Under the pieces are notes generated by a model. The model searched no databases. It saw only the letters and a program-made list of their open reading frames with translations, and was not told the DNA's origin. The translations under genes and the position numbers were made by a program. Source: Aquimonas sp. (lineage in GTDB: Bacteria; Pseudomonadota; Gammaproteobacteria; Xanthomonadales; Xanthomonadaceae). From it: a DNA stretch of 64,000 bases. Below are positions 9,969 through 26,745 of this stretch, piece by piece; the stretch's first letter is position 1, and each line of letters begins with the position of its first letter. Location: the NCBI GenBank assembly GCA_035440755.1, contig DAORND010000008.1, positions 1,796 through 65,795 of the forward strand. The letters run 5' to 3'.

Positions 9969-10346
9969 TCAGCCCGGTCTTGTCGGCAAGCCTTCGTTGC
10001 ACCAGGCGATCATGCCTCCATCAAGGTTGATCAACGTTGCGTCACTACGTTCGCTTCGCAGCCTGGCGATGGCGCGTTGCGAACGCATGCCGCTTCGACA
10101 AACCACCAACAGCTCTCTGGTATCGGCGGGAATTCCCGCGCTTTTCAGTGCGTTCCAGCCATAGGCGTCAACGTCACCGAGCGGCACGTGCTTGGCCTGC
10201 GCAATCATGCCGCCGGCGACTTCGTTGGCTTCACGAACATCGATGGCGGCGACACCGCGCGCGATCAGCTGTTCGGCCTCGCGTGGCCCCACGCCGCCCG
10301 CCTGACCGGAAAACACCTGCTTCAACCAGTCCATCGGATTGGTCAT
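9969..10346 (-). CDS. Single-domain rhodanese (sulfurtransferase)
   Basis: IDVRE..E, active-site loop VCRSGMRS, NLDGGMIAW; ATG at 10346 overlaps the upstream stop. Confidence 0.92.
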   Translation of the reverse strand: MTNPMDWLKQVFSGQAGGVGPREAEQLIARGVAAIDVREANEVAGGMIAQAKHVPLGDVDAYGWNALKSAGIPADTRELLVVCRSGMRSQRAIARLRSERSDATLINLDGGMIAWCNEGLPTRPG

Positions 10347-10693
10347 GTCTTGCTTCCTCCCCCACAGTAGATGCGATGCAGTACGGCAATGATGTCGTGG
10401 ACCGGACCATCGGCCAGCGAATAGAAAATGGTCTGCGCGCTGCGTCGGGTTCTCACCAGTCCCTCTTCGCGCAACACGGCCAGGTGCTGCGAGAGGGCCG
10501 ATTGCGACAGATCCATGCCCGCGTTGATGTCGCCCACCGCTTGCTCGCCATCCGCCAGCATGCAAAGGATCATCAGGCGACGGTCGTTGGCAATGGCCTT
10601 CAGCAGACGCGAAGCGTCGCTGGCGTGGCCGCGCATTTCTGCTGCTTCGGAGGCTACCAGCGCGCGCGAGCGCTCAATCGATTCGACAGTCAT
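10343..10693 (-). CDS. ArsR/SmtB family persulfide-sensing repressor (BigR/SqrR/HlyU type)
   Basis: LLKAIANDRRLMILCML (Cys in helix 2), SQSALSQHLAVLREEGLV, C-terminal LHRIYC (second Cys): the two-Cys pattern of BigR/SqrR. Confidence 0.9.
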   Translation of the reverse strand: MTVESIERSRALVASEAAEMRGHASDASRLLKAIANDRRLMILCMLADGEQAVGDINAGMDLSQSALSQHLAVLREEGLVRTRRSAQTIFYSLADGPVHDIIAVLHRIYCGGGSKT

Positions 10694-10700
10694 GGCGGAC

Positions 10701-11090
10701 TCAGCGCGTAGTAACCGGATGACCGCGTTCGGTCCACGCGGTGATGCCACCGGCCATTGAGCGCACCTTGCTGAAACCCATCTGTTGCAGCGCATCTGCA
10801 GCCAGCGCAGAGCGGCCACCGGTACGGCAATAGAGCGTGATCGCACGGTCTCGCAGTGCCAAGGCGGGATCGACGGCGCAGGCCATAGCGGGATGGGCCT
10901 CAACCTGAAACTCCAGCACGCCACGCGGAATATTGATCGCACCCGCGAGGTGTCCCATCTCGAACTCGGCCGGTTCGCGAACGTCAATCAGCACATCTTC
11001 GCGATGTTCCTCCGCCGCAAGGGCGTCGACACTTACTTCAGAGATTCGGGTCTTGGCGGCAGCGACTAGATCGCTTGCGGAAAGGGACAT
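10701..11090 (-). CDS. Single-domain rhodanese (sulfurtransferase)
   Basis: LIDVREPAEF..GHLAGAINIPRG, LYCRTGGRSALAA, SMAGGITAW; GAAGGAG RBS. Confidence 0.93.
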   Translation of the reverse strand: MSLSASDLVAAAKTRISEVSVDALAAEEHREDVLIDVREPAEFEMGHLAGAINIPRGVLEFQVEAHPAMACAVDPALALRDRAITLYCRTGGRSALAADALQQMGFSKVRSMAGGITAWTERGHPVTTR

Positions 11091-11323: not shown

Positions 11324-12592
11324 ATGGCTAAGATCGTTGTACTGGGTGGCGGCATCGGCGGTACCAGCATGGCTTATGAGCTGCGCGCGGCGCTCGGCAA
11401 GGAACACAGCATTTCCGTCGTGGGTGATACCCCGCTGTTTTCGTTCACGCCGTCCAATCCCTGGGTGGCAGTCGGCTGGCGTAAGCCCAGCGACATTCAG
11501 GTCAATATCGGCCAATACCTGGCCAAGAAGGGCATTGCCTTCAATCCGGTCGGTGCGCAGGAACTGAAGCCTGCTGAGAACGCCATCATCCTGCGCGATG
11601 GGCACCGCATGGAGTATGACTACCTCGTCATCACGACCGGCCCACGCCTGGCGTTTGACGAAATTCCCGGCTTGGGCCCGGATGGCCATACGCACTCGGT
11701 ATGCACGACGCCGCACGCGTTGGAAGGCTGGATGGCCTACCAGGAGTTCGTGAAGAACCCCGGACCCATCGTCGTTGGTGCTGCACAGGGCGCAAGCTGC
11801 TTTGGTCCCGCCTACGAGTTCATCATGATCCTTGATGCGGATCTGCGTAAGCGCAAGATTCGCGACAAGGTGCCGATGACCTATGTCAGCAGTGAGCCCT
11901 ATGTCGGGCACATGGGTCTGGGCGGCGTCGGTGATTCCAAAGGCTTGCTCGAGGGAGAGTTCCGACAGCGCCATATCAAGTGGATCGTCAACTCGAAGAT
12001 CACCGAAGTGCGCGATGGCGAGATGGCCGTGCAGGAAATGGATGCCGACGGCAAGCCGTTGCGCGAGCACACCGTGCCGTTCAAATATTCGATGATTCTT
12101 CCCGCATTTACTGGCGTGGATGCCGTGCGCACGGCACCAGAGATGTGCAATCCGCGTGGTTTTGTCTTGATCGACAAGCACCAGCGCAATCCGAAGTATC
12201 CCAATGTCTACTCGGCCGGCGTGTGCGTCGCCATTCCTCCTGTGGAGCCGACACCTGTGCCGACGGGCGCGCCGAAGACGGGTTTCATGATCGAGTCGAT
12301 GGTGACTGCCATCGTTGACAACATCAAAGCGGAGTTGACTGGCAAGCCCGTCGAGGCGGTCGCCACTTGGAATGCCATCTGCTTGGCCGACATGGGCGAC
12401 ACCGGTGCTGCGTTCGTCGCGCTTCCGCAGATTCCGCCGCGCAACGTGACCTGGGCCAAGGTCGGCAAGTGGGTGCATCTGGCCAAGATCGCGTTCGAGA
12501 AATATTTCCTTTTCAAAGTGAAGTCCGGCAACAACGAGCCTGTGTACGAAAAATACGTGCTCAAGGCGCTGGGCATCATGCGTTTGAAGTGA
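11324..12592 (+). CDS. sqr: Sulfide:quinone oxidoreductase, type I (SqrA-like)
   Basis: GGGIGG FAD motif, FTPSNPW, SVCT, GASCFGPAYE, GVCVAIPP..PTPVPTGAPKTGFMIESM, CLADMGD; all three conserved cysteines present. Confidence 0.95.
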   Translation: MAKIVVLGGGIGGTSMAYELRAALGKEHSISVVGDTPLFSFTPSNPWVAVGWRKPSDIQVNIGQYLAKKGIAFNPVGAQELKPAENAIILRDGHRMEYDYLVITTGPRLAFDEIPGLGPDGHTHSVCTTPHALEGWMAYQEFVKNPGPIVVGAAQGASCFGPAYEFIMILDADLRKRKIRDKVPMTYVSSEPYVGHMGLGGVGDSKGLLEGEFRQRHIKWIVNSKITEVRDGEMAVQEMDADGKPLREHTVPFKYSMILPAFTGVDAVRTAPEMCNPRGFVLIDKHQRNPKYPNVYSAGVCVAIPPVEPTPVPTGAPKTGFMIESMVTAIVDNIKAELTGKPVEAVATWNAICLADMGDTGAAFVALPQIPPRNVTWAKVGKWVHLAKIAFEKYFLFKVKSGNNEPVYEKYVLKALGIMRLK

Positions 12593-12617: not shown

Positions 12618-12821
12618 ATGAATCTTGATCGAGCCATTTTTGCCTTCGCTGGCGTGATGATCTTGGTGAGCCTGGCGCTGGGGCATTTCGTGTCGCCGTA
12701 CTGGCTACTGTTGACGGCCTTTGTGGGCTTGAACCTGCTGCAGTCGGCGTTCACCGGTTTTTGCCCGGCGGCCATGATTCTCGGCAAGTTCGGCGTCAAA
12801 GCCGGTTGCGCATTCAAGTAA
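12618..12821 (+). CDS. DUF2892 (YgaP-like) small inner-membrane protein
   Basis: MNLDRAIFAFAG..., two TM helices, conserved FTGFCP. Confidence 0.88.
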   Translation: MNLDRAIFAFAGVMILVSLALGHFVSPYWLLLTAFVGLNLLQSAFTGFCPAAMILGKFGVKAGCAFK

Positions 12822-12831
12822 GGACGACCTC

Positions 12832-13917
12832 ATGCAGATGCGAACCGAACTGGGTGTGCTGGCATTGGTCAGCGCACTGACTCTTGGCCTGACGGGTTGC
12901 GGTGGAGAATCCACGCCGACCGAAATCGTGGCGAGCGGCGAACTGCCGTTCTCCACCTTGACGGTTTCTCCGGTTTCCGCCCAACGCGAACGCATCTGGG
13001 ATGGCGTGATCGAAGCGGTGAACCAGGCCACCTTGTCTGCGCAGACAGGTGGCCGGGTCCGCGAGGTTCTAGTCGACGTCAACGATTATGTGAAGGCAGG
13101 AGATGTCATCCTGCGTTTTACCGACGTCGAGCAACAGTCTGCAATTCGTCAGGCGCAAGCCGCGTTGGCCGCGGCAAAAGCGGCGTTGGACGAGGCGGAA
13201 TCCGATTTCAAGCGGATCAGCGAGATCTTTGGACGGCAGTTGGTTTCGAAAGCGCAGTTGGATCAGGCGACGGCGCGCCGTGACGCCGCCAAGGCGCAGC
13301 ATGAGTCCGCGCAAGCCGCCGTGCGCGCTGCCAACGAGCAGGTTGACTACACCGTCGTCCGCGCGCCGTATTCTGGCATCGTCACCCAGCGCCACGTTGA
13401 AGTAGGCGAGGCAGTGAATCCGGGTCAGCCGTTGATCTCGGGTTTGTCGCTGGACAAGCTCCGCGTCAACGTGCAAATACCGCAGAGCGACATGGCGTCC
13501 ATACGCGAGCACGCCAAAGCCTCCCTGCTACTGGCAGATGGCAAGCGCATCGACGCAGAACAGGTGATCGTGTTTCCGTATGCAGACCCAACGACGCATA
13601 CCTTCAGCGTGCGCTTGGAGCTGCCGCAGGCGGAAACCGGTCTGCAACCGGGGATGACTGCCAAGGCGGCATTTGTAATCGGTGCCTCCGAGCGACTCTT
13701 GGTGCCTGAATCCGCATTGGTTCGACGCAGTGAGGTCACTGCCGTTTACGTGGTCAGCGAGGGCAAAGTCAGTTTGCGTCAGATTCGTCTGGGGCACCGT
13801 TTTGGCAATGAAATCGAGGTGTTGGCAGGTCTTTCTGCGGGCGACGCGGTCGCCACCGATCCGGTAGCCGCGGGTGTCTACCTCTCCCGCATGCACGCCC
13901 GGGAGTTGGCGCAATGA
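12832..13917 (+). CDS. RND efflux periplasmic adaptor (MFP), lipoprotein
   Basis: Lipobox LTGC, lipoyl halves (SAQTGGRV..V.V...DYVKAG; VRAPYSGIV), alpha-helical hairpin, GLQPGM. Confidence 0.95.
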   Translation: MQMRTELGVLALVSALTLGLTGCGGESTPTEIVASGELPFSTLTVSPVSAQRERIWDGVIEAVNQATLSAQTGGRVREVLVDVNDYVKAGDVILRFTDVEQQSAIRQAQAALAAAKAALDEAESDFKRISEIFGRQLVSKAQLDQATARRDAAKAQHESAQAAVRAANEQVDYTVVRAPYSGIVTQRHVEVGEAVNPGQPLISGLSLDKLRVNVQIPQSDMASIREHAKASLLLADGKRIDAEQVIVFPYADPTTHTFSVRLELPQAETGLQPGMTAKAAFVIGASERLLVPESALVRRSEVTAVYVVSEGKVSLRQIRLGHRFGNEIEVLAGLSAGDAVATDPVAAGVYLSRMHARELAQ

Positions 13918-16900
13918 GCGAGCGCGACGGCGCGCCTGCGATGGGCATTTCCGGCCGTCTTGCGGCGGCATTTCAGGCCAATCCGCTGACGCCCATCCTG
14001 GCGATTGCGGGTCTCCTTCTCGGTATGGTTGCGGTGATGATCACGCCGCGCGAGGAAGAGCCGCAGATCGATGTGACCATGGCCAACGTCACCGTGCCGT
14101 TTCCGGGAGCGCCGGTTGATGATGTTGAGAACCTGATCAGTGTCCCACTGGAACAGGTGCTTTCGGAGATTGATGGCGTAAAACACGTCTACTCGGTATC
14201 GCGCCCTGGTGTGTCGATGACCACGGTCGAGTTTGATGTGGGCGTGCCACGCGCAGATGCATTGGTGCGGCTGTACAACCAGATCTATTCGAATCTGGAC
14301 TGGTCGCCGCAGGGACTGGGCGTTGGTCAGCCCCTGGTGCGCCCGATGGGTATTGATGACGTGCCGGTCATGGGTCTGACCTTGTGGACCGACGATCCAG
14401 CACGCGGTGCAACGGACGTGGCGGAAGTTGCGCACACTCTTGAGGCCGAATTGAAACGCATCCCAGGAACGCGCGATGTGTATACGATCGGCGCACCCGA
14501 CCGTGCCGTGATTGTTGAGCTGGACGCCACCAAACTGGCCTCCTACGGTATGGACGTTGCCGACCTCTCCAACGCCTTGCTGGCCAGCAATGTGGTCTCT
14601 CAGGCAGGCGACCGGATCGGCCCAGAAGGACAAGTTCCGGTGACTGGGGGGACCTATCTCGCGGATGCGCGTCAGGTTGCCGAGCTGGTCATCGGCTTGC
14701 GGGATGGCAAACCCCTGTTTCTGTCGGATGTGGCGACCGTGCGGCGCGGCGCGGACATGCCAACGCAATATGTGTGGCATGGCGTACCCGCGGGTCAGCA
14801 TGGGCCTCAACAGGGCATCGCGCCGGCGGTGACCATTGCTGTCGCCAAGAAGCCGGGTGCCAATGCAGCCGACATCACCAAGGCCATCGAACACCGTATC
14901 GAGATCTTGCGTGGGAGTGTCATTCCAGAGGGCGTGGAAGTTACCGTCACGCGGGACTACGGCAAGACCGCGAACGACAAGGCGATCAAGCTGATCCAGA
15001 AATTGGTGTTCGCGACGATGGCGGTGGTCTTGTTGGTGCTGTTTGCGCTGGGCTGGCGCGAAGCCATCGTGGTGGGTGCGGCGGTCATCATCACCCTAGC
15101 GCTGACCTTGTTCGCCAGTTGGGCGATGGGCTTCACGATCAATCGCGTATCACTTTTTGCTCTGATCTTCTCCATCGGTATCTTGGTTGACGATGCCATT
15201 GTGGTGGTGGAGAACATCCATCGGCATATGGCAAAAGGCGGTCGAACCTTGTTCGAGGCTATCCCTCCGGCGGTCGATGAGGTCGGCAGTCCGACCATCC
15301 TGGCGACGTTCACCGTGATCGCTGCCCTGTTGCCAATGGCTTTCGTCACCGGATTGATGGGGCCCTATATGCGGCCGATCCCGATCAATGCCTCGGTGGG
15401 CATGCTGCTATCGCTGGCGGTGGCATTGATCGTGACGCCCTGGCTGTCCTTGAAGCTGCTGTCGCGCCACCTTGGCGAGCATGCACAGGGCACATCCGAT
15501 GGTCATGGTGCGGGCATCGCGGCGCGACTGCATGGCGTTTTTGATCGCATCATGCGGCCCTTCCTCGACCGCCAACGTGGTGGCCGACGTCGAAACTGGT
15601 TGTGGGCGGGTATCGGTGTGGCACTGGTGCTTTCTGCCGGGATGGCAGTGGTGCAGTGGGTCGTGCTGAAAATGCTGCCCTTCGACAACAAGTCGGAATT
15701 CCAGGTCGTGGTCGACATGCCCGAAGGCAGCACGCTGGAGCGCACGAATGCGTTGCTTCAGGAACTGGCCGGAGTGGTCGCCGAACTGCCAGAAGTGAGT
15801 GATTATCAGGGCTACGCGGGAACCTCCGGACCGGTCAATTTCAATGGCCTCGTTCGCCAGTACTACCTGCGTCAGGGTCCCATCGTCGCCGACCTGCAAG
15901 TCAATCTGGTCGACAAGCATGATCGTGATCGCAAGAGTCACGAGATCGCCCGCGCGGTGCGTCCACAGCTCGCTGCAATCGGCAAGCAGTACGGCGCATC
16001 CGTCAAAGTCGTCGAGGTTCCGCCCGGACCGCCAGTTCTGTCTCCGCTGGTCGCGGAAATCTATGGGTCGGATCAGGCCACGGCACGCGCCATGGCGCGT
16101 GAGCTGGTCGGCAAGTTCGAGGCGACCGAGGGCTTGGTGGACATCGATACCACGGTCGAGTCGGAATCAGCGCGCGATCTGGTGCTGGTGGACCGTGCGC
16201 GTGCAGCCCAGATGGGCGTCAGTCAGGCGGCCATTGCGCAGGCCTTGCGGACCGGCTTGTCCGGCAATGACGCGACCTACCTGCGAGACGGCGCTTCGAA
16301 GTATCCCGTGCCGGTGCGCTTGCGCTTGCCTGCCGGTGATCAAGCCAGCATGGATCAATTGCTGGCGCTTCGAGTTCGCACTCAGGACGGGCGACTGATC
16401 CCGCTGTCCGAAGTCGTTACGGTGCAGCGCGTCACCTGGGAGAATGCGATCTATCACAAGGACCTGCTGCCGGTCGTATACGTCATGGCAGACGAGGCGG
16501 GTGCGTTGGATAGCCCTCTCTATGGCATGTTTGACGTGGTCGGTCAGTTGGGTGACGAGATGCTCGCTGGCTACGGCATCAAGCAGTACTTCATTGCTCA
16601 GCCGGAGTCCACGGCGGAGTTCGGCATCAAATGGGACGGCGAGTGGCAGATCACCTATGAAACGTTCCGCGACATGGGAATCGCCTATGGCGTGGGCATG
16701 GTGCTGATCTATCTGCTGGTGGTGGCGCAGTTCCGCAGCTATGTCGTTCCACTGATCATCATGGCGCCGATTCCGCTCACCGTGATTGGCGTGATGCCCG
16801 GCCACGCCTTGCTCGGTGCGCAATTCACCGCGACCAGCATGATCGGCATGATCGCGTTGGCGGGAATCATCGTGCGCAACTCGATATTGCTGGTGGACTT

Positions 16901-17162
16901 CATCAACAGCGAGCTGGCGGCGGGTCGTCGCCTTGACGACGCAGTGATCGACGCCTGTGCCGTCCGCGCGCAGCCGATTGCTCTAACGGCGCTGGCGGCG
17001 ATGCTCGGTGCGTTGTTCATCCTTGATGACCCCATTTTCAATGGCCTCGCCATTGCGCTGATCTTCGGCATCCTGGTGAGCACGGTTCTGACCCTGGTCG
17101 TGATCCCCTTGCTCTACTACGTGTTTCTCAATCGTCGCCAGCCCGGCGAGGCGCAGCCATGA
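13914..17162 (+). CDS. RND efflux permease (AcrB/AcrD/AcrF superfamily)
   Basis: 1082 aa; TM4 GILVDDAIVVVENI, TM10 GIIVRNSILLVDF, TM11 RAQPIALTA proton-relay residues; ATGA overlap with the MFP. Confidence 0.97.
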   Translation: MSERDGAPAMGISGRLAAAFQANPLTPILAIAGLLLGMVAVMITPREEEPQIDVTMANVTVPFPGAPVDDVENLISVPLEQVLSEIDGVKHVYSVSRPGVSMTTVEFDVGVPRADALVRLYNQIYSNLDWSPQGLGVGQPLVRPMGIDDVPVMGLTLWTDDPARGATDVAEVAHTLEAELKRIPGTRDVYTIGAPDRAVIVELDATKLASYGMDVADLSNALLASNVVSQAGDRIGPEGQVPVTGGTYLADARQVAELVIGLRDGKPLFLSDVATVRRGADMPTQYVWHGVPAGQHGPQQGIAPAVTIAVAKKPGANAADITKAIEHRIEILRGSVIPEGVEVTVTRDYGKTANDKAIKLIQKLVFATMAVVLLVLFALGWREAIVVGAAVIITLALTLFASWAMGFTINRVSLFALIFSIGILVDDAIVVVENIHRHMAKGGRTLFEAIPPAVDEVGSPTILATFTVIAALLPMAFVTGLMGPYMRPIPINASVGMLLSLAVALIVTPWLSLKLLSRHLGEHAQGTSDGHGAGIAARLHGVFDRIMRPFLDRQRGGRRRNWLWAGIGVALVLSAGMAVVQWVVLKMLPFDNKSEFQVVVDMPEGSTLERTNALLQELAGVVAELPEVSDYQGYAGTSGPVNFNGLVRQYYLRQGPIVADLQVNLVDKHDRDRKSHEIARAVRPQLAAIGKQYGASVKVVEVPPGPPVLSPLVAEIYGSDQATARAMARELVGKFEATEGLVDIDTTVESESARDLVLVDRARAAQMGVSQAAIAQALRTGLSGNDATYLRDGASKYPVPVRLRLPAGDQASMDQLLALRVRTQDGRLIPLSEVVTVQRVTWENAIYHKDLLPVVYVMADEAGALDSPLYGMFDVVGQLGDEMLAGYGIKQYFIAQPESTAEFGIKWDGEWQITYETFRDMGIAYGVGMVLIYLLVVAQFRSYVVPLIIMAPIPLTVIGVMPGHALLGAQFTATSMIGMIALAGIIVRNSILLVDFINSELAAGRRLDDAVIDACAVRAQPIALTALAAMLGALFILDDPIFNGLAIALIFGILVSTVLTLVVIPLLYYVFLNRRQPGEAQP

Positions 17163-17620
17163 CTGATACCGACTCACTGATCATTGCCTGTCCGCATTGT
17201 CACGGACTCAACCGTTTGCCGCAGGCACGCCTGAAGGATGCGCCACACTGCGGCAAGTGCGGCGCGACGATTTTCTCGGGCAAACCGTTCGAGCTCGACG
17301 CCAGCAATTTCGAAGTTCATGTGGCACGTTCGCAGTTGCCCATCTTGGTCGACTTCTGGGCGCCGTGGTGTGGTCCCTGTCGATTGATGGCGCCTGCCTT
17401 CGCGCAAGCTGCCTCGCAGTTGGAACCCCAGTTCCATCTGGCCAAGGTGGATACCGAAGCGCAGCCGATGCTGGGGCAGCGCTTTGGCATTCGCAGCATT
17501 CCCACCTTGGCACTGTTTCACAACGGAACCGAGATCGGACGTCAGTCTGGTGCCTTGCCGCTAGGTGAAATCGTGCGCTTCGCGCGCACCCAGTTCATGA
17601 ACTACGTGGCGGGTCTGTAG
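17159..17620 (+). CDS. trxC: Thioredoxin 2 (zinc-finger thioredoxin)
   Basis: CPHC...CGKC zinc site and WAPWCGPC active site, IRSIPTL. Confidence 0.93.
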   Translation: MTDTDSLIIACPHCHGLNRLPQARLKDAPHCGKCGATIFSGKPFELDASNFEVHVARSQLPILVDFWAPWCGPCRLMAPAFAQAASQLEPQFHLAKVDTEAQPMLGQRFGIRSIPTLALFHNGTEIGRQSGALPLGEIVRFARTQFMNYVAGL

Positions 17621-17622
17621 CC

Positions 17623-18078
17623 ATGTCGGACGCCCGCTTTTCATTGACCGTCGAGCAGGAATCGGACTACGTCTTTCGAGTCCGTTTTGATGACACAGAC
17701 ATCCCCGATCTGCTGACCGACGAACCAGAGCCGCTCGGTGGTGGCAGTGGCCCCAATCCCTCGCGCATGCTGGTTGCGGCGGTCGCCAATTGCATGAGCG
17801 CGAGCCTGCTGTTCTCGCTGCGCAAGTTCAAGAATACGCCGGGCACCCTGGTCACCAAGGCGACCGCACATCTGGGCCGCAGTCCCGAAGGACGCCTGCG
17901 CGTCGAGCGAATCGACGCCGAAATCGCGTTGCCCGAAATGGCGGGCAGCTACGCACAACTCGAACGCATTCTTGGACAGTTCGAACAGTTTTGCGTCGTG
18001 ACAGAAAGCGTGCGCAATGGCGTGGCCGTGAACGTCCGCGTCGTCGATCCAACCGGTGTCGTCCTGCATGGCGAGTGA
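17623..18078 (+). CDS. OsmC/Ohr family protein
   Basis: DEPEPLGGGSGPNP..LVAAVANC...FCVVTESV, two-Cys OsmC pattern. Confidence 0.9.
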   Translation: MSDARFSLTVEQESDYVFRVRFDDTDIPDLLTDEPEPLGGGSGPNPSRMLVAAVANCMSASLLFSLRKFKNTPGTLVTKATAHLGRSPEGRLRVERIDAEIALPEMAGSYAQLERILGQFEQFCVVTESVRNGVAVNVRVVDPTGVVLHGE

Positions 18079-18113
18079 GTTCGCCACCGAGTTTTTCTGA
18101 TGGAGCTACACCA

Positions 18114-19097
18114 ATGAAATCTCTTGTCATTGCCTTGAGTCTGCTGATGGCAGGCTCCGACGCCCACGCCCAAGAGGCGGCAAACCCGGATGCCGCCAGT
18201 GCCGCAAAAGCGCAAGCGGCGATCAAGGACCTGGGCCAATCCCTGCGCGGTGCGTTGGTCGCCAAGATGCAGTCGGAAGGCCCGGTGGCGGCGGTCAATT
18301 TCTGCCACGACGAAGCCCCGCTCATCGCCTCCCAGGTCGCCGAGCGTCATCAGGTGCAGATTGGACGCACGGCGGTGCGCCATCGCAGCCCGAGCAATGC
18401 CCCCAGCGAATGGCAACAAGCGGCGCTGGCGGAATTTGCCGCCAAGGTGGCAGAGGGCGCTCCGGCGGCTGGAATGACCTCGTCAAGTACGGTTGATGTC
18501 AACGGTGAAAGTCGTTTCCGCTTTGTGCAGAGCATCCCGACCGAGGCACCCTGCCTGGCCTGCCACGGTGACACTGTCGCGCCACCGATCAAGGCCGAAA
18601 TCGACAAGCATTACCCGCAAGACACGGCGACGGGCTTCAAGGAAGGTGACCTGCGTGGCATGTTCTGGGTGGAGTTCCCGATGACTCCCGCCGCCACGCC
18701 CGTGTCACAGAACCCGCCGGATCAACGCGCCCCTATCGTAATGAGCGAAGCGCAACGTGTGTCCCTGCGACTGGAAATGCGCGGACGCATGGAAACGCTG
18801 CAAGGCGTCATGGCCGCGCTGGCCTCGGGCGATTGGTCTGAAGTCGCCAAGCGCTCGGAAGAGGGCACACGTGGGCAGCATCGCGGTGTCGACTTCCGCT
18901 CGGCATTGCCTCAGGAATGGTTTGGCATGGCGCGCCCCATGCACGGCGAGTTCGCGGCCATCCAGCACGAGGCCGAGGGTCAGAAGCGCGTCGACGTCGC
19001 CCTGCAACATCTGGCCAAGGCAGGTCAGTACTGCACGTCCTGTCATGCGACTTTCCGCCCCGTGACGCCTAGCGAGAGCGCTGTCGCGCAGCAATGA
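18114..19097 (+). CDS. Secreted diheme c-type cytochrome: DUF3365/Tll0287-like domain fused to a cytochrome c'-like helical domain
   Basis: Signal peptide MKSLVIALSLL; AVNFCHDEAP, RTAVRHRSPSNAP, CLACHG, YPQDTATGFKEGDLRG (DUF3365 pattern); Pro-rich linker; second domain ends CTSCHATFR. Confidence 0.8.
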   Translation: MKSLVIALSLLMAGSDAHAQEAANPDAASAAKAQAAIKDLGQSLRGALVAKMQSEGPVAAVNFCHDEAPLIASQVAERHQVQIGRTAVRHRSPSNAPSEWQQAALAEFAAKVAEGAPAAGMTSSSTVDVNGESRFRFVQSIPTEAPCLACHGDTVAPPIKAEIDKHYPQDTATGFKEGDLRGMFWVEFPMTPAATPVSQNPPDQRAPIVMSEAQRVSLRLEMRGRMETLQGVMAALASGDWSEVAKRSEEGTRGQHRGVDFRSALPQEWFGMARPMHGEFAAIQHEAEGQKRVDVALQHLAKAGQYCTSCHATFRPVTPSESAVAQQ

Positions 19098-19732
19098 CGC
19101 TGAACCACGCGAACCCGCGTGAGTTCTGGGACTCGCGCTTTGCGGAAATCGACTTTCTCTACGGTCAGCTGCCCAACGCGTGGCTGTACGAATGTGCCAT
19201 CAGCCTGCCACCACACGGCGGGCGCGTGCTGTGTGCCGCCGAGGGCCAAGGTCGCAATGCCCTGTGGTTGGCGAAGCAGGGATGCGAAGTCCACGTGGTG
19301 GATATTTCTGCCGTGGCCTTGGAGCACCTTGAGCGGCGCGCACGACAACTCGGACTGCCGATCACCTGCGAACAGGCCGATCTGGCCAATTGGATCGCCG
19401 AGCCCGAGAGTTACGACGCGGCCTTGCTGATCTTCGCCCACTTCCCGCCAGCGGTACGGAAGCATGTGCACACGCAAGTCCAACGCGCCCTCAAACCGAG
19501 AGGTTGGCTGGTGTTGGAAGCGTTTTCCCCAGAGCAACTCGGATTGACTTCCGGCGGACCGCGAAATCCTGCCTGGCTCTACAGCGCTGAGATGATCGCC
19601 GGGGATTTCGCAGGGATGCAGATCGCTTCGCTGAGCCAGATCCGGATCCGCCTGGATGAAGGCCCCGGACATCAGGGCGAAGCCGCCGTGGTCCGCTTGC
19701 TTGCAAGACGAATCGAAGAGCGCGCGGAGTAA
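19094..19732 (+). CDS. Class I SAM-dependent methyltransferase (TehB-like)
   Basis: FWDSRF...YGQLPNAWL, RVLCAAEGQGRNALWLA, VDIS; ATGA overlap with the cytochrome gene. Confidence 0.9.
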   Translation: MTLNHANPREFWDSRFAEIDFLYGQLPNAWLYECAISLPPHGGRVLCAAEGQGRNALWLAKQGCEVHVVDISAVALEHLERRARQLGLPITCEQADLANWIAEPESYDAALLIFAHFPPAVRKHVHTQVQRALKPRGWLVLEAFSPEQLGLTSGGPRNPAWLYSAEMIAGDFAGMQIASLSQIRIRLDEGPGHQGEAAVVRLLARRIEERAE

Positions 19733-19881
19733 CAGCGCTCCTTCTGCGGCAAGGATCACCTGCGCGCGGCGCGGACGGGGCGACCTGACGCTTGTCGGCT
19801 CCACTCTACCGACCATCTGGCTGGACTGGAGTCGCTGACGGCGCGGGCATACAGTGGGATGGTCAAAAAAGGGGGAAGTGC

Positions 19882-20445
19882 ATGCGCAACTTGTGCCACC
19901 AGTCAAGATTCAGCGGTCTTCCTGCATTTAGTTCGGTTTGGCAGCGCGGCGTCACCCTGTTGGAGTTGATGGTCGCTGTTGCTATTGTGGGCATTACCCT
20001 GTCCCTTGCGTTACCAAGTTTCAATGACTCGATCGAACGGAATCGCGTCGTATCGACCGTCAACGAAATGGTGGGTGCCATGAATCTTGCCCGTTCGGAA
20101 GCAATCCGCACGAACCGGACTGCCACCTTTTGTGCCAGCCTTGATCAAGCGACCTGCGGTGGGACATGGAGTGATGGCTGGATCGCTATCGCTGATCTCG
20201 ATGGGGATGCGGTCATGGATGTCTTGCGCACTGGCACTGTCAGTGACAAGGACGAAGTTACGGCTGCTGCGACTCAGATCGACTTTAATCAGCGCGGTCT
20301 GAAGACAGTCCCGGTGGGTGCGGCCACTATCGCTGTTCAGCCAGCAGGTTGTGCGGTTGGAAAGCCGCATCGTCGCGTCGTTTCCGTGACTGCTACCGGC
20401 GGTGCATTTGTCGCCAATCATGGCACTGACGCCAATTGTATTTGA
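19882..20445 (+). CDS. fimT: Type IV minor pilin FimT/FimU (GspH-like)
   Basis: Prepilin cleavage QRG|VTLLELMVAV; LNLARSEA-like MNLARSEAIR. Confidence 0.85.
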   Translation: MRNLCHQSRFSGLPAFSSVWQRGVTLLELMVAVAIVGITLSLALPSFNDSIERNRVVSTVNEMVGAMNLARSEAIRTNRTATFCASLDQATCGGTWSDGWIAIADLDGDAVMDVLRTGTVSDKDEVTAAATQIDFNQRGLKTVPVGAATIAVQPAGCAVGKPHRRVVSVTATGGAFVANHGTDANCI

Positions 20446-20457
20446 TGGGTTCTTTAT

Positions 20458-20985
20458 ATGACTACGAAATGGCAAGCTGATACTGAACGTGGTGTATCGC
20501 TCATCGAGGTAATGGTGGCAGTGTTGGTGCTTTCAATTGGACTGCTGGGAATGGCTTCGCTTATGGGGGTCTCGTTGCGCAATACCCAGAGTGCCAACTA
20601 CCGGACTCAGGCGGCTAATCTTGCATACGAGTACATTGACACGGCGCGAGCCTATATCGCCATTGGCGGTGGAGACAAGCTTGGATACATCCTGCAGCCA
20701 GCGTGGTCGGCCGCCAATTGCGATATTGCGACCGCGCCTCTCTACAATTGCGGTGGTGGCTTGGACTCCTTGAATTGCGACATCCGACGATTAGGGGACC
20801 ATGTGTGCCGGGTGTTGCCCGGAGGGCGTCTGCGGGCCACTGCTGTGCCGCTTGGTGGAAATCCGGATCGCCTGCAGTTGACGGTCGACATCTGCTGGAC
20901 AGATGACCGATCAGGCGCGGGAGCAGTGACTGAGGCCTGCAACAGCGATTCGGAAACCTTGTTCACGTTGGTGACCGAGCTATGA
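20458..20985 (+). CDS. pilV: Type IV minor pilin PilV
   Basis: ERG|VSLIEVMVAVLVLSIGLLGMA, SANYRTQA, terminal ICWTDDR. Confidence 0.92.
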   Translation: MTTKWQADTERGVSLIEVMVAVLVLSIGLLGMASLMGVSLRNTQSANYRTQAANLAYEYIDTARAYIAIGGGDKLGYILQPAWSAANCDIATAPLYNCGGGLDSLNCDIRRLGDHVCRVLPGGRLRATAVPLGGNPDRLQLTVDICWTDDRSGAGAVTEACNSDSETLFTLVTEL

Positions 20986-22181
20986 GTATTGTGAATGCGA
21001 TGAGACGCCGCATTCGCGCCTCCCAGCAAGGTCTGTCATTGGTCGAACTGATGGTCGCCCTCGCAATCGGTGTTCTACTTTTGTTGGGTCTGGTTGAGAT
21101 ATTCGGCTCGACAAGAGCTGCCTTTGGTGCGGCTGAGGGTTCTTCTAGAGCACAGGAAGCAGGAAGATTCGCTACAGAGTTTCTCAAGAGAGATTTGCGG
21201 GTCACAGGCCACGTTGGCTGCCTGAACGAACGTGCCTATCTGTCGGCTGCGGGTGGCCTGTTTGTGCACATGAGTGCTGGCGCTGTTGCGGCGGCACCCT
21301 ATGCGTTCCGTGTCGATTATCCGATTCAGGCCTATGAGTACGCGGGTACAGGGCCGGGAGATGCAGTCGATCTTTCGGCGGGGGCAACCGCTGCCACAGT
21401 GAGTGGTGAATGGAGTCCGGCATTGCCGACCGAGCTTGACGCCTTGCTCAACGAGGCAGTGGTTGGAAGTGATGTGCTTGTCGTTCGTTTTTTGAGTCCA
21501 GAGTTCGTTGATTCGGTTATTGTTGATATAGCCAATGCGCAATTTCAGATTACAGATCTGGCCGATCAGCCATTCTTTACATTGGATAGTGTCTACGGCG
21601 TTACAAATTGTCGAAAACTGAGCCTGGTGCAAGCTAGGACGGCCCCCGTGGCGGGCATTGTGAATGTTGGTATTAGCGGATTGAATGCGGTGGGCTGGAG
21701 TGCGCAGTTCGAAGACGGTTATGCACCACCCGGGACGAGTGTGCACAACTACAATTACGTTGTGTACTACGCCGGGATAGATGGTGCGTCTGGCCAGCCA
21801 TCTCTTAAGCGGCGAAACCTCGATCCATCGAGTGCAACGTTCCTCGGGCCATCAGAAACTTTGGTTGAAGGGGTGGAGTCGCTTCAATTCGTGTTCGGTG
21901 TGGACACTAGCGCGCCTCAAGATGATCAGGTGGATGTCTATCACACGGCAGACGGGATTGCCGGACTCCCGGTTGGTGCGGATGACCCTGCGCGGTGGAG
22001 GCGGGTGGCAACCGCCCGAATGGGGGTGATTACCCGAAGCCCGAATTCATCATCTGCCGCTCGCGACGCTGCCGCATCACAAATTCGGTTGGCGGATTCT
22101 GTGTTCACGTTCGCCGATGATGGGCGGGTCCGCCAGTCACACGAAACACTCGTTTCCATGCGAAATCGGAACAGGAATTGA
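20982..22181 (+). CDS. pilW: Type IV minor pilin PilW
   Basis: QQG|LSLVELMVALAIG, AQEAGRFA..FL.RDLR..G, LVEGVESLQFVFGVD, C-terminal MRNR. Confidence 0.92.
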   Translation: MSIVNAMRRRIRASQQGLSLVELMVALAIGVLLLLGLVEIFGSTRAAFGAAEGSSRAQEAGRFATEFLKRDLRVTGHVGCLNERAYLSAAGGLFVHMSAGAVAAAPYAFRVDYPIQAYEYAGTGPGDAVDLSAGATAATVSGEWSPALPTELDALLNEAVVGSDVLVVRFLSPEFVDSVIVDIANAQFQITDLADQPFFTLDSVYGVTNCRKLSLVQARTAPVAGIVNVGISGLNAVGWSAQFEDGYAPPGTSVHNYNYVVYYAGIDGASGQPSLKRRNLDPSSATFLGPSETLVEGVESLQFVFGVDTSAPQDDQVDVYHTADGIAGLPVGADDPARWRRVATARMGVITRSPNSSSAARDAAASQIRLADSVFTFADDGRVRQSHETLVSMRNRNRN

Positions 22182-22182
22182 C

Positions 22183-22659
22183 ATGAACCAATTCAATCAC
22201 TTTCCACAGAGACAACAGCGCGGTGCCGCATTGTTTGTGTCGATGATGATTCTAATACTGCTGACCATGCTCGCTCTGTCAGCATCGCAAGTTACTAGTC
22301 TGCAGGAGAAAATGGCTTCTGCGTATTGGGCGGACGCGCGTGCGTTCGAGCGTTCCGAAGCCGCGCTTCGAGCAGAGCAGCGCGCGCTAAGAACCGCTGT
22401 TGAGCAGGGTTTGTGTGTTTCGGATTCTGCCAGCTTACCAACTTGGCTTGGTAGCGCCCCGGCGGCTGGCGAGGCTCATGTATTGGCGATCCGCCATGAG
22501 GCGGCACGCGGCAGCGGCCTTGAGTCCGAAATCGTTGCCGGCAGTGCATTGGGCGCGTTGGATTGCGCGGTGTTCAAGATAAGTGTGGCAGACGCCGATA
22601 CCGTGGCCCCAGCTGACGCCAGCGCTTGGTCGGTTGTTCAGTCTGTCTTCGTACCATAG
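22183..22659 (+). CDS. pilX: Type IV minor pilin PilX
   Basis: QRG|AALFVSMMILILLTML (no Glu5, typical of PilX), LQEKMASAY.D..RAFE.SEAALR. Confidence 0.9.
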   Translation: MNQFNHFPQRQQRGAALFVSMMILILLTMLALSASQVTSLQEKMASAYWADARAFERSEAALRAEQRALRTAVEQGLCVSDSASLPTWLGSAPAAGEAHVLAIRHEAARGSGLESEIVAGSALGALDCAVFKISVADADTVAPADASAWSVVQSVFVP

Positions 22660-22668
22660 ATTTAGCTG

Positions 22669-25600
22669 TTGAGAAGGAGTTTGGCTATGTTCGCCATGCA
22701 ATCCGTTTCAGTGAAGCGCGCGCTGGTGGCGCTCGTCGCCGCCCTGACGATGGCGTCCGGGATGTCAGCGAGAGCGGCAATTGATGTTTCGCAAAGCCCG
22801 TTGTTTCTTCCTTCGCCGGTTGATCCAAATATCCTGTTCGTGTTGGACGACTCTGGATCGATGTACTGGGAATCTATTCCAGATAGTGCCGTCTTGTTCA
22901 TGTTCCCCAGACCAAACGGTGTATATGGGAACGCCAGTGAATATAGCAACCAGGTAGCCTCAGTAAATTATGCCTCAGGGAATGCGAATGAGGCCGTTTC
23001 TGCTTTGGCTTTTCGTTCGTCTTCCTATAACCCTTTGTATTATAATCCGGCTATTACATATCGGCCTTGGGCAAACGCCGATGGGTCGCTGTGGGCGGAT
23101 TCGAATCCACTGGCCGCCCGATATCATCCGGCGCGAGGTGGTCCGGGAACCCTGAATCTGACGACAAATGTTACTCAGAACGCACAATGGGTGTATACGA
23201 ACAATGCCGGGAGTGCGTGGGGGGCTTGGGCTGATAGAAGTTATTACCCGGCGACTTATGCACGGTTCCTAGGTGGGGCAGTTTGGAATGCGGCAAACTA
23301 TCAACGCGTCGAAATTAAGGTAGCAAATGCTCCTTTCACTGGTGACGGTCGCGAGAACAGAACAGATGTTGGTTGCGTGGCAGGCAGCTGTAGCTACACC
23401 GCAGAAATTCAGAATTTCGCAAACTGGTTTACTTACTACAGGTCGCGGCATTTGGCGGCAGCGGCAGGTGTTGGTCGCGCTTTCGCATCCCAGTCGGAGA
23501 AAATGCGCGTTGGATTTGGTGCGATCAATAAGTCCGGTACGTCTGTGGATGGAGTGGCCAATACTGAAGTGGTAATGAGCGGCGTGAGGCAATTTTCCGG
23601 CGCGGATCGAACCTCATTTTTTAATACGCTTTATGGCAGTAGTTGGGAGCCTTGGGGTACACCTTTGCGCTGGGCACTTGACAATGCGGGTCAGTATTTT
23701 TCACGCTCGGACAATCCTGGCCCATGGGGAAAAATACCTGGCACGAACGATGCGAGTAGTCATTTGGCCTGCAGGCAGAGCTACACGATCTTGATGACAG
23801 ACGGTTATTGGAATGGCGCCGCGGCGGAAACAGCAGGAGCTCAGGCCGATACTGACTCAACGGGTGGTCCAACCATTCTTGGTCCATCTGGTTCGTTCAC
23901 ATTCGACGCGGTGACTCCGTTTCGCGACGGTCGCGGCAACACGCTTGCGGATGTCGCTATGTATTATTGGAAGCGAGATCTACGCGGTACTATAGATAAC
24001 TTGGTCCCGACATCAACGATCAATCCTGCGTTCTGGCAGCACATGGTGACGTTCGGTATCGGTTTTGGTGTTGCGGGCACGGTTTCACCAACAACAGCGT
24101 TCGATGCGCTCGCCAATTCACCGGCGATCAACATCAATTGGCCGAACCCTACAGGTGGTACCGCCCAGGTGGATGATTTGCTGCATGCTGCGATTAATTC
24201 GCGCGGTGGTTTCTTCTCTGCCCGTGAGCCAGACGTTTTTGCGTCGGAATTGTCGAGTGTGTTGCAGGAAATTGTTGCTCGCTCGCTTGCTTCAAATGGT
24301 GTGTCCGCTTCTGCGACAAGGCGTGATACCAGTTTCTTGGTGTATGTTCCGGAGTTTGACAGCGCGGATTGGACTGGCGATGTCAAGGCCTACAACTTGA
24401 ATTCGGATGGTAGTCTAGCGAGTGTCGCATGGTCGGTATCGGCTAAGTTCAATTCTGGTTCGCCGGTGGATCATTCCTCTCGCGATATTTATGTTGCCCT
24501 CCCCAGTGGATCGAGTTACGCCCTGTCCCCGTTTACGGTTTCTGGGCTCGGTGGGGCTACATCTGCAGAGGCACACTTGGGTATTGTTGCATCGGATATT
24601 ACAGCTTATGGCACTGGTATCACGGTGAGCGAAGTCATCGATTATGTGCGCGGCAGCCATGCCAATGAGGGAACGAATGGTGGGCCTTTGCGAAATCGCT
24701 TGCGAGCATTTGGTGACATCATCGGTTCAAAGCCCGAAGTGATACGCGCCAATAGTTTCGGTTATGAGACCTTGCCTGCTGCTGAGGGAGGCGGGAGTGA
24801 TGACTCGATCTTCGGGACATACGCACACTTCTTGAAGCAGAAGCGCGCTAAGGATCCGGTTCTTTTCGTAGGTTCGAACGACGGCATGTTGCATGCGTTT
24901 GATGCGACGGAGACTGGCGGCGACTTGCTTTTCAGTGTAATGCCGAACGGGTCGTTAGGGTTGGTTAAGGAGTTACCAAAGAAGACGTATGCCCATCATT
25001 TCGGAGTGGACGGATCGCCGGCGCAGTTTGACGTAAGACTCGGTGGCTCATGGAAGACAATTCTGCTTACGCCGATGGGTGCGGGTGGGCGGTCGGTATT
25101 TGCATTGGATGTGACAGATGCCGGCTCAAGTTTCTCCATGAGCAGCTTCTTGTGGGAGTTCAAGAACGCTAATCTCGGATATACGCTTGGTGATCCAAAG
25201 GCTGCCTATTACAGAGGTAACCAGTGGTATGTCACTGTGCCGAACGGCGCTGGTGCGAATGATCATCAGGCGCGGTTGTTTTTCTTGGATCCATCGGATG
25301 GATCGATTGAACATAATGTTGTGCTGGGAAGTTCGGGCACAGCTTCCGATCCCAACGGTTTGATGTCGGCTGTTCCTGTAGACAGTGATTTTGATGGTCG
25401 AGCGGATACGGTTTATGCGGCCGATTTGCACGGCAACGTTTGGAAGGTTGTCATCAGTGCCGCGGGAGTGCCGACGGTTGCCTATGGCGGTCCGTTCTAT
25501 GTAGCCAAAGATGCTAGTGGGAATCGCCAGCCAATTACTGGATCGCTTAGTGCGGCGGTCCACCACCTGAGTGGTCAGATGGTGTTTTTTGGAACGGGCA

Positions 25601-26289
25601 AGTACTTCGAGGTGGGTGACAATACAGTCAGCTCGACGCCGCCGATGGAAACGTTCTACGGTGTCTGGGATAACGGCGCGTCAGTGGGTGGTCGGTCCCA
25701 GCTAACGCAGCAGAGTATAACCGGTGAGATTATGACCACGGATGGTCTCGCTCGAACCATGAGCAATGTGGCGGTTGACTGGAACAACGAGAAGGGCTGG
25801 TACGTCGACTTGGCAGTAGGTAGCACGAAGATTGGCGAGCGATTTGTCGGGCAGCCAAAGGTGCAGTTAGGTAGGGTATTCTTCACGACGTACACGCCGA
25901 AAGGTGATGCCTGTCAACCAGGTGGTGAGAACAGGTTGTACGCGCTTTCAGCTTTGACTGGCGCTGCCAATTTTGGATTTGACGATGCTACATGCACTGA
26001 CTGCGGTGGCGTTGTGATTGGATCTGATGGCGGGGCGATTGATGTTCCTGATTTTGTGGTTACGCCGCCTGGCTCCGGAGCGTGTAGGCCAGGGATTGAT
26101 ACCGGTTGTGAGTTGCAGTATGTCGATGAGGACGGTAATCCTTGTACTGCAGGCGACTCTGGATGCAGTGCAGTGACGCCCGGGGCAGCGCAAGGTTGTC
26201 GGCTTGATATTGGAGTTGTGTTGAGCAACGGTACCCGCTCGATTGGTGGTTTGTCGTGTGGTGTTCAGTCTTGGCGGCAGTTGCAGTAA
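22669..26289 (+). CDS. pilY1: Type IV pilus tip adhesin PilY1/PilC with vWA-like and beta-propeller domains
   Basis: PNILFVLDDSGSM (MIDAS), NFANWFTYYRSR, ILMTDGYWN, FVGSNDGMLHAFD, GVDGSP, Ca-loop DSDFDGRAD, FFGTGKY, GWYVDL. Start at 22669 or 22687. Confidence 0.93.
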   Translation: MRRSLAMFAMQSVSVKRALVALVAALTMASGMSARAAIDVSQSPLFLPSPVDPNILFVLDDSGSMYWESIPDSAVLFMFPRPNGVYGNASEYSNQVASVNYASGNANEAVSALAFRSSSYNPLYYNPAITYRPWANADGSLWADSNPLAARYHPARGGPGTLNLTTNVTQNAQWVYTNNAGSAWGAWADRSYYPATYARFLGGAVWNAANYQRVEIKVANAPFTGDGRENRTDVGCVAGSCSYTAEIQNFANWFTYYRSRHLAAAAGVGRAFASQSEKMRVGFGAINKSGTSVDGVANTEVVMSGVRQFSGADRTSFFNTLYGSSWEPWGTPLRWALDNAGQYFSRSDNPGPWGKIPGTNDASSHLACRQSYTILMTDGYWNGAAAETAGAQADTDSTGGPTILGPSGSFTFDAVTPFRDGRGNTLADVAMYYWKRDLRGTIDNLVPTSTINPAFWQHMVTFGIGFGVAGTVSPTTAFDALANSPAININWPNPTGGTAQVDDLLHAAINSRGGFFSAREPDVFASELSSVLQEIVARSLASNGVSASATRRDTSFLVYVPEFDSADWTGDVKAYNLNSDGSLASVAWSVSAKFNSGSPVDHSSRDIYVALPSGSSYALSPFTVSGLGGATSAEAHLGIVASDITAYGTGITVSEVIDYVRGSHANEGTNGGPLRNRLRAFGDIIGSKPEVIRANSFGYETLPAAEGGGSDDSIFGTYAHFLKQKRAKDPVLFVGSNDGMLHAFDATETGGDLLFSVMPNGSLGLVKELPKKTYAHHFGVDGSPAQFDVRLGGSWKTILLTPMGAGGRSVFALDVTDAGSSFSMSSFLWEFKNANLGYTLGDPKAAYYRGNQWYVTVPNGAGANDHQARLFFLDPSDGSIEHNVVLGSSGTASDPNGLMSAVPVDSDFDGRADTVYAADLHGNVWKVVISAAGVPTVAYGGPFYVAKDASGNRQPITGSLSAAVHHLSGQMVFFGTGKYFEVGDNTVSSTPPMETFYGVWDNGASVGGRSQLTQQSITGEIMTTDGLARTMSNVAVDWNNEKGWYVDLAVGSTKIGERFVGQPKVQLGRVFFTTYTPKGDACQPGGENRLYALSALTGAANFGFDDATCTDCGGVVIGSDGGAIDVPDFVVTPPGSGACRPGIDTGCELQYVDEDGNPCTAGDSGCSAVTPGAAQGCRLDIGVVLSNGTRSIGGLSCGVQSWRQLQ

Positions 26290-26337
26290 TGTTGTAATCG
26301 CGCCTGCCGCTTGGCGCGCGCACCGGCCGGAGTTGGT

Positions 26338-26745
26338 ATGAAATCCCTTAATCGTGGTTTTACGTTGGTTGAACTTATGATCGTCGTTGCAGTGATTGCT
26401 GTAATTACGATGATTGCGGTGCCTGCATACAACGAACAGGTTCGAAAGTCTCGGAGAGGGTTGGCGAAGAGTGATCTCTTGGAGTTAACTCAGTGCGCAG
26501 AGCGTTTCCACACGACCAATGGCACTTATGTCGGCTTTGATGCTGCCGCAGTGTGCAACGTTAACGGCAGAGATGACGCAAACACCTATGACTTTGCCGC
26601 CGCCGCGATTACTAGGACGACTTTTACCTTGAGCGCTACCGCGCAAGGTGGGCAGACCGATGATAAGTGCGGTGACCTCGGCATCAATCAGGCCAACGTT
26701 CGCACGCATTCGGCAGGAACCGCGGCGGATCGCTGCTGGGAGTAG
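26338..26745 (+). CDS. pilE: Type IV minor pilin PilE
   Basis: NRG|FTLVELMIVVAVIA, PAYNEQVRKSRR..AK..L, ERF.T.NGTY, C-terminal C...CW. Confidence 0.93.
   Translation: MKSLNRGFTLVELMIVVAVIAVITMIAVPAYNEQVRKSRRGLAKSDLLELTQCAERFHTTNGTYVGFDAAAVCNVNGRDDANTYDFAAAAITRTTFTLSATAQGGQTDDKCGDLGINQANVRTHSAGTAADRCWE

Follow-up and report, generated by a model that had tools for sequence, protein, structure and literature searches.

The 64,000 nt window analysed here (positions 1,796 to 65,795 of contig DAORND010000008.1, Aquimonas sp.) carries at 18114–19097 on the plus strand a gene for a secreted diheme protein, in which a heme c domain of the Tll0287/DUF3365 type is joined through a linker to a class II cytochrome c domain. 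Structural modelling shows the predicted product as an exported protein built for two c-type hemes in two different folds, each of them confidently predicted. Both domain families are already known; apparently new are their combination and its placement in an operon that starts with a type I sulfide:quinone oxidoreductase (SQR). We read the fusion as a periplasmic redox module of the sulfide or reactive-sulfur stress response and give this reading a probability of roughly 0.4. The function is one that we infer from the identities of the two domains, their invariant residues, the presence of CcmE in the genome, the SQR-RND context, the recurrence of cyd and SQR neighbours in other lineages, the H2S induction of the SQR-RND operon in Azospira and the redox-like behaviour of stand-alone relatives.

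The open reading frame (ORF) starts with ATG and encodes 327 amino acids; a longer, TTG-started frame is an upstream extension of it, and the homologues share the methionine of the ATG start. Its extent is supported by the translation, by about 20 full-length homologues and by the AlphaFold2 model. By inspection, the N terminus (MKSLVIALSLLMAGSDAHA|QE) resembles a Sec signal peptide, predicted at residues 1–19 (18114–18170, cleavage AHA|QE); residues 1–20 have a low predicted local distance difference test score (pLDDT), and the N-termini of the homologues are likewise signal-peptide-like. Domain 1 covers residues 27–189 (18192–18680) and domain 2 residues 206–317 (18729–19064). Between them lies a Pro-rich, flexible linker of about 16 residues (residues 190–205, 18681–18728; written to residue 206 it reads MTPAATPVSQNPPDQRA), which varies in length and sequence among the homologues and falls below a pLDDT of 50 at residues 194–198. 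The predicted template modelling score (pTM) of the whole-protein model is 0.57 at a mean pLDDT of 89.7. Cys64, both CXXCH motifs, Met222 and the pair Met276-His277 are invariant in 20 of 20 full-length homologues with 44–85% identity to the query, so these motifs are not a matter of chance. The source genome (3.3 Mb in 191 contigs, 94.7% complete) holds one copy of each domain. It also encodes CcmE, which makes a cytochrome c maturation system available and, together with the signal peptide, covalent heme attachment feasible. The earlier note, made from the letters of this stretch, had pointed out the signal peptide, a lone cysteine in NFCHDEAP, CLACH, the Pro-rich linker, a helical second domain and CTSCH, all of which are present in the translation. 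It was also right about the architecture, a Tll0287/DUF3365 domain joined to a domain of the class II, cytochrome c′-type four-helix superfamily, and the AlphaFold run that it proposed gave folds of high confidence for the whole protein as well as for domain 2 alone.

The identity of domain 1 is clear at the levels of sequence and predicted fold. PF11845 (Tll0287-like, formerly DUF3365) scores 80.8 bits against a cut-off of 24.1 (E = 1.8e-22, residues 27–189), and the sequence of the Tll0287 crystal structure 5b82 is matched with E = 8e-11, or E = 6e-16 when a profile is used, which bears out the family assignment proposed earlier. Foldseek returned 5b82 as the sole significant match of the AlphaFold2 model (E = 3.9e-7, template modelling (TM) score 0.68 on the target), consistent with a Cache/PAS-like fold; next came Geobacter GSU0935 with its heme c PAS sensor domain. 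The heme 1 attachment motif C147-L-A-C150-H151 (18552–18566), which includes the proximal histidine, shows no variation among 20 homologues and lines up with the CLACH of Tll0287. Cys64 (codon 18303–18305), within NFC64HDEAP and followed by the near-invariant His65, occurs in 206 of 208 aligned relatives as part of a motif [FV]-C-x3-A-P; the remaining two are gapped at this position. From this conservation, Cys64 is a candidate distal thiolate ligand of heme 1, with His151 as the candidate proximal ligand.

In ungapped HMMER alignments, Cys64 falls three residues ahead of the ligand Cys68 of Tll0287, as the latter has V-C68-A-P where the fusion has F-C64-H-D-E-A-P. We considered and rejected the idea that the two cysteines are not equivalent: the cysteine is invariant in [FV]-C-x3-A-P and Tll0287 has V-C-A-P, so the offset is best read as an artefact of ungapped alignment over an indel. 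Tll0287 of Thermosynechococcus elongatus has in common with domain 1 the PF11845 family, the Cache/PAS-like fold, CLACH with its proximal histidine, a cysteine on the distal helix and export, but it is a single-domain protein of 191 aa with about 27% identity and without a second heme domain. The authors of the paper on its structure (Journal of Biological Chemistry, 2017) reportedly discussed a role in H2S oxidation.

Domain 2 was harder to place. Residues 199–327 alone found no relatives in a word-indexed search of 5.8 billion proteins, and a phmmer search of this domain against the PDB returned nothing except a match to CalC, which we dismissed as chance. PF01322 stayed below its cut-off of 26.5 bits with the whole protein (14.4 bits) and with the domain alone (17.9 bits), and it was sub-threshold in 13 of 14 orthologous domains (best E = 3.6e-5). 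Homology emerged only once stand-alone relatives entered the profile. The relatives are class II-like cytochromes c, about 150 aa long and either secreted or anchored in the membrane (L053–L071, for instance L053:1480-1953:-, L055:1438-1863:+ and L068:1447-1941:-), and they carry the signature of domain 2. They are spread over several families of the order, and one genus has them in 9 of 15 genomes; their neighbouring genes show no recurrent pattern. Two of them pass PF01322 themselves (L068 with 31.8 bits, L055 with 26.8 bits). Profile A3, which combines the fused domains with the stand-alone relatives that a profile-based scan of 401 genomes of the order had yielded, matched PDB cytochromes c′ with E-values ranging from 2.5e-6 (3vrc) through about 4e-5 (8rkp and 5b3i) and 2.5e-4 (AXCP) to 1e-3, and b562 with E = 7e-4.

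The AlphaFold2 model of domain 2 alone (pLDDT 93.8, pTM 0.84) is an up-down four-helix bundle with helices at residues 212–237, 241–251, 267–288 and 293–313, the motif C307xxCH311 closing helix D. Top-ranked by Foldseek was the cytochrome c′ of R. capsulatus (1rcp/1cpr, TM 0.57–0.60, probability 1.0), followed by cb562 variants, although the E-values of these fold matches are weak (0.06–0.09). On profile and model evidence, domain 2 is a divergent class II (c′/c556-type) cytochrome c. It resembles the members of this class (cytochrome c′ 1rcp, the T. tepidum protein 3vrc, low-spin c556, and E. coli b562 and cb562) in its four-helix bundle of about 110–125 residues and C-terminal CXXCH, but differs from them in staying below the Pfam threshold, in having a signature of its own and in being fused rather than free.

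This signature, EMR...LP...H...CxxCH-A-x-[FY]-R, reflects the residues invariant across the fused and stand-alone sequences of A3, namely Met222-Arg223, Pro266, His277 and C307/C310/H311; Met276 is conserved in the fused clade only. The heme 2 attachment motif C307-T-S-C310-H311 (19032–19046), with His311 as the candidate proximal ligand, falls opposite the CXXCH of cytochromes c′ and cb562 in the alignments. Met222-Arg223 in helix A (the EMR motif, 18777–18782) provides a candidate sixth ligand or distal-pocket residue. From the ranges over which the A3 profile aligns with the PDB sequences, we estimate that Met222 lies roughly at the position of the distal residue or methionine ligand of class II cytochromes. 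His277 in helix C (18942–18944) is the alternative candidate ligand or pocket residue. Because Met222 and His277 are both invariant, a six-coordinate electron-transfer heme (His/Met or His/His, c556/b562-like) appears at least as likely as the five-coordinate heme of cytochromes c′. The label cytochrome c′-like, given to the domain before this analysis, therefore stands for fold and superfamily; the pentacoordinate, gas-binding heme that it implied is at most equally likely.

That the fusion looked unusual had been noted from general knowledge of the two domains, and the databases agree. Among 1.84 billion representative proteins, 4299 family clusters match the query and about 10 of these span both domains, and the fusion was found in 11 of 185,579 species genomes. 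Nine of the 11 are labelled as Lysobacterales or as groups within it (Lysobacteraceae, Aquimonas, Rhodanobacteraceae), one as “Proteobacteria” and one as Patescibacteria. The last is a metagenome-assembled genome (MAG) whose contig DATMVT010000284.1 (L014) carries the entire SQR-RND-fusion module with 74–82% protein identity to the window; given this identity, it is probably a mis-binned Lysobacterales contig. A sample of 401 genomes of the order yielded the fusion in 10 genomes from four GTDB families. In a 400-genome sample of the class, the domain-1 family was present in 95 genomes, and domain 2 was absent from all 29 best-matching domain-1 loci inspected. All fusion-bearing genomes found are MAGs, so genetics would begin with the domain-1-only orthologues of cultured genera.

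In the domain-1 tree, fused and unfused sequences are interleaved within one well-supported clade, which forces at least seven gains or losses. The simplest history that accounts for this pattern has the two domains fusing once, early on, and domain 2 being lost repeatedly afterwards, although incomplete gene calls may lie behind some of the unfused entries. None of 25 loci had a domain-2 gene beside a domain-1-only gene, as a split version would. The MAG G197 has a separate domain-2 homologue of 156 aa with its own signal peptide (L051 / L072:3440-3910, minus strand, E = 8e-40), which adjoins a HAMP histidine kinase, and a domain-1 homologue on another contig (L110); judged from these sequences, the pair may be a naturally split form of the fusion.

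In the window, the gene belongs to a tight plus-strand array with gaps of at most 36 bases or overlaps. Type I SQR acts at the periplasmic face of the membrane, and the SQR at the head of this operon (11324–12592) matches that of A. ferrooxidans over its full length (3sz0, E = 5.6e-152) and that of Aquifex (3hyv, E = 2.6e-114). It is followed by a DUF2892/YgaP-like small membrane protein (12618–12821), a membrane fusion protein (MFP, 12832–13917) and an RND permease (13914–17162), all three assigned from Pfam, synteny and the gene calls of an 85%-identical relative locus (L001). Next are a TrxC-type thioredoxin (17159–17620) and an OsmC-family protein (17623–18078) directly upstream of the heme protein gene, both assigned from Pfam/NCBIfam and kept beside that gene in most loci. 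The last gene of the array encodes a TPMT/TehB-like S-adenosylmethionine-dependent methyltransferase (19094–19732, Pfam/NCBIfam), which overlaps the stop codon of the heme protein gene by 4 bases. Its counterparts are also adjacent to the heme protein gene in L001, L004, L006 and L010, of which L004 is not an SQR context; its substrate could be sulfide, thiols or chalcogens.

On the minus strand, three divergent genes, recognized from their translations and the L001 gene calls, encode a rhodanese (10701–11090), an ArsR/BigR-SqrR-like repressor (10343–10693, HTH_5) and another rhodanese (9969–10346). The repressor has one cysteine in LMILCML and one in a C-terminal RIYCGG, which we take to match the BigR/SqrR pattern. 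A weak hairpin (7 pairs) with a T-run lies over the osmC stop codon at 18069–18086, 28 bases 5′ of the heme protein start. The hairpin scan yielded a smaller number of such sites for the real sequence than for shuffled versions, and this one may be without meaning.

The same module recurs in related genomes. Among 36 related loci identified by tblastn, 27 have the heme protein gene, with or without domain 2, directly after the RND gene and with OsmC and/or TrxC beside it; in one of them (L002), the RND gene runs 4 bases into the heme protein gene. The module consists of the BigR/SqrR-like repressor with rhodaneses, type I SQR, DUF2892, MFP, RND, the heme protein, OsmC and TrxC. The 27 SQR-RND loci come from MAGs and isolates labelled Arenimonas, Thermomonas, Dokdonella, Aquimonas, Silanimonas and others, and gene order is kept across genera in which the heme protein domains are just 40–58% identical. 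Outside the order, three unrelated gammaproteobacterial genomes have a domain-1-only gene right after cydB (L082, L089 and L083 in G728, G659 and G774), and in L082 and L089 the fetched flank shows a Crp/Fnr regulator and an SQR downstream of the cydB-heme gene pair. By gene order, the cydB loci are a second, independent sulfide or micro-oxic context for stand-alone genes of this family. The domain-1-only genes across the Gammaproteobacteria showed no recurrent neighbours beyond this group of cydB, heme protein, Crp/Fnr and SQR. The earlier note had also proposed that the protein serves SQR. Within the lineage this proposal agrees with strong synteny (the 27 of 36 loci), which is its whole basis, and 4 of the 11 fusion loci lie elsewhere.

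Two published systems inform the function. The family of domain 1 was recently renamed sCache_heme (bioRxiv 10.64898/2026.02.01.703092). According to the same study, about half of its members are fused to signalling outputs, and these signalling-type proteins bind NO tightly. The other half stand alone, with genes not linked to signalling output genes; their function is unknown, and working out their true functions was called challenging. Stand-alone members behave as redox proteins and not as gas sensors. The one from P. putida (Cluster 1), the only stand-alone relative characterized biochemically, has a midpoint potential (Em) of +123 mV and binds NO weakly (10.64898/2026.02.01.703092). It belongs with domain 1 to the non-signalling subclass with a distal cysteine, but has a single heme and no informative gene neighbourhood, in contrast to the additional class II domain and the conserved SQR-RND operon of the fusion. 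The second system is the SQR-RND operon of Azospira suillum, which is strongly induced by H2S (PMC5358917). Its gene product Dsui_3440 is listed there as “hypothetical protein”, and a protein search returned no Azospira entry that would place it in DUF3365.

Under the favoured reading, a repressor of the BigR/SqrR type would sense persulfide and release the operon, and type I SQR would oxidize H2S to sulfane sulfur at the periplasmic face. Heme 1, thiolate-ligated and probably of low potential and labile in its ligands, would react with sulfide, polysulfide or related sulfur species, and heme 2, probably six-coordinate with His/Met or His/His ligation, would relay electrons to or from periplasmic carriers. 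Relatives without domain 2 would need a separate cytochrome for this relay. Such a layout, a reactive His/Cys heme plus a relay heme, would parallel TsdA and SoxAX in unrelated folds. TsdA and SoxAX are diheme His/Cys sulfur-oxidizing cytochromes. The likeness lies in the proposed logic only, a thiolate-ligated reactive heme with a relay heme acting on sulfur compounds in the periplasm: the fusion has no Pfam or NCBIfam match to TsdA or SoxAX, both are absent from its PDB sequence and fold matches, and it has no sequence or fold relationship to either.

The fusion of a heme Cache domain to an electron-transfer-type cytochrome argues for redox chemistry rather than signalling. The locus thereby gives a functional lead for those sCache_heme proteins that stand alone, about half of a large family, through the cytochrome fusion and the sulfide-operon placement. 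The SQR-RND-OsmC-TrxC placement across this order, together with the cytochrome bd and SQR neighbours elsewhere, is the second clue to function, and the clues combine into a testable hypothesis on the periplasmic handling of sulfide and sulfane sulfur by heterotrophs.

Several observations weigh against this reading. Of the 11 fusion loci, the four not near SQR (L004, L011, L012 and L013) have other surroundings: L004 and L011 show the order 1-Cys peroxiredoxin, fusion, Dps/ferritin, with LysR, glutaredoxin or methyltransferase genes nearby; in L012 the fusion follows the cyd-operon gene ybgE, with a histidine kinase beside it; and in L013 it adjoins DUF2202 and a response regulator. Outside the order, no SQR or RND was found within 1.5 kb in 26 of the 29 best loci. 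A complete genome of the same genus contains neither domain 1 nor domain 2, so the gene is accessory. In the window itself, the hairpin between osmC and the heme protein gene could partly uncouple the last two genes, and the AlphaFold2 model of the whole protein, with its pTM of 0.57, does not confidently predict the placement of heme 1 relative to heme 2. In the P. putida protein, the cysteine ligation is partial and lost on reduction, and the C59A variant is nearly unchanged; together with the Em, this argues against an obligatory thiolate heme (10.64898/2026.02.01.703092). Finally, deletion of the Azospira operon left the rate of H2S oxidation unchanged (PMC5358917).

The alternatives draw on much of the same evidence. 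The fusion may instead be an oxidant-stress protein, a periplasmic diheme cytochrome that is peroxidase-like or detoxifies peroxide, co-regulated with thiol peroxidases, in which a reactive heme of low potential would be paired with a relay heme after the logic of the bacterial cytochrome c peroxidases. We consider this unlikely but worth keeping in view, as a thiol peroxidase is the most constant neighbour of the gene (OsmC in the SQR-type loci), the 1-Cys peroxiredoxin and Dps/ferritin genes of L004 and L011 are arranged divergently from a LysR regulator, and genes for TrxC and glutaredoxin lie nearby. However, the protein has no similarity to CCP/MauG (diheme cytochrome c peroxidase) or any peroxidase family in Pfam, and CCP/MauG are absent from the fold matches. 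Moreover, the peroxidase neighbours are cytoplasmic and the diheme protein is exported, in most loci the regulator is of the ArsR/BigR type and is accompanied by rhodaneses and SQR, and OsmC, Prx and Trx are also plausible handlers of persulfides.

A non-catalytic role at the RND pump seems rather doubtful. Here, the heme Cache domain would bind sulfide, polysulfide or O2, or sense the redox state, and modulate or feed the MFP-RND system as a periplasmic sensor or accessory, a part played in other RND systems by small periplasmic proteins. The position right after the RND gene in most related loci, with the overlap in L002, would fit this role, as would the facts that extracytoplasmic ligand sensing is typical of Cache domains and that half of the family is fused to signalling outputs. 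Yet a diheme protein without an output or transmembrane domain, a second cytochrome domain that is hard to explain in a pure ligand sensor, the redox-like rather than sensor-like character of the stand-alone members and the separation of the gene from RND by trxC and osmC in the window all speak for something else.

To a similarly small degree, we reckon with a general periplasmic electron carrier without a specific link to sulfur or stress, whose operon position would be an accident of the lineage. For the P. putida relative, the Em is within the range of ordinary soluble cytochromes, domain 2 has been gained or lost repeatedly according to the domain-1 tree, and the gene is missing from the same-genus genome. 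An accident is harder to reconcile with the retention of gene order across genera at 40–58% domain identity, with the independent recurrence of the SQR or cyd association in other lineages and with the invariance of the distal cysteine.

Equally improbable in our estimate, yet of particular consequence, is a more specific proposal that the protein is a novel periplasmic sulfur-oxidizing heme enzyme. At a thiolate-ligated heme in a Cache fold, a redox-linked ligand switch between Cys64 and His65 would serve to make or cleave S-S bonds, with sulfide, polysulfide or thiosulfate as substrates, and the class II cytochrome domain would feed the electrons into the respiratory chain. If true, such an enzyme would match TsdA and SoxAX by convergence and provide the first function for the stand-alone half of the sCache_heme family. 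Very improbable, finally, is the binding and scavenging of NO or CO for protection against nitrosative stress, in which domain 2 would behave as a genuine pentacoordinate cytochrome c′ and the heme Cache domain would offer a second gas site: the best fold matches of domain 2 are cytochromes c′, with profile matches down to the E-value of 3vrc, and the signalling-type sCache_heme proteins bind NO tightly, but the invariant Met222 and His277 face the predicted heme pocket region and favour six-coordination, the stand-alone subclass binds NO weakly, and no nitrogen-oxide genes occurred in the contexts examined.

No description of an sCache_heme domain combined with a class II cytochrome was found in the searchable literature, and the conserved SQR-RND-OsmC-TrxC operon placement is not reported in the study that renamed the family. 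That study describes an sCache_heme-cytochrome_c-like fusion “exclusively in Flavobacteria” (10.64898/2026.02.01.703092). The flavobacterial protein likewise combines a heme Cache domain with a second, CXXCH-bearing cytochrome domain, but it differs from the fusion described here in its taxon (Flavobacteria versus Lysobacterales) and, as far as the names indicate, in the fold of the partner, cytochrome_c-like in one case and a class II four-helix bundle in the other. With the fusion in the window, the coupling of a Cache domain to a cytochrome has a second and independent example.

Beyond the operon, the window contains a type IV pilus minor-pilin cluster at 19792–26745, with FimT/GspH-like, PilV, PilW, PilX, PilY1 and PilE-like proteins. 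Its G+C content is 0.53–0.56 compared with about 0.60, and its PilY1 has 1206 aa compared with 1711 aa in the 85%-identical relative. The lower G+C content and the difference in PilY1 length make this cluster look like a variable region.

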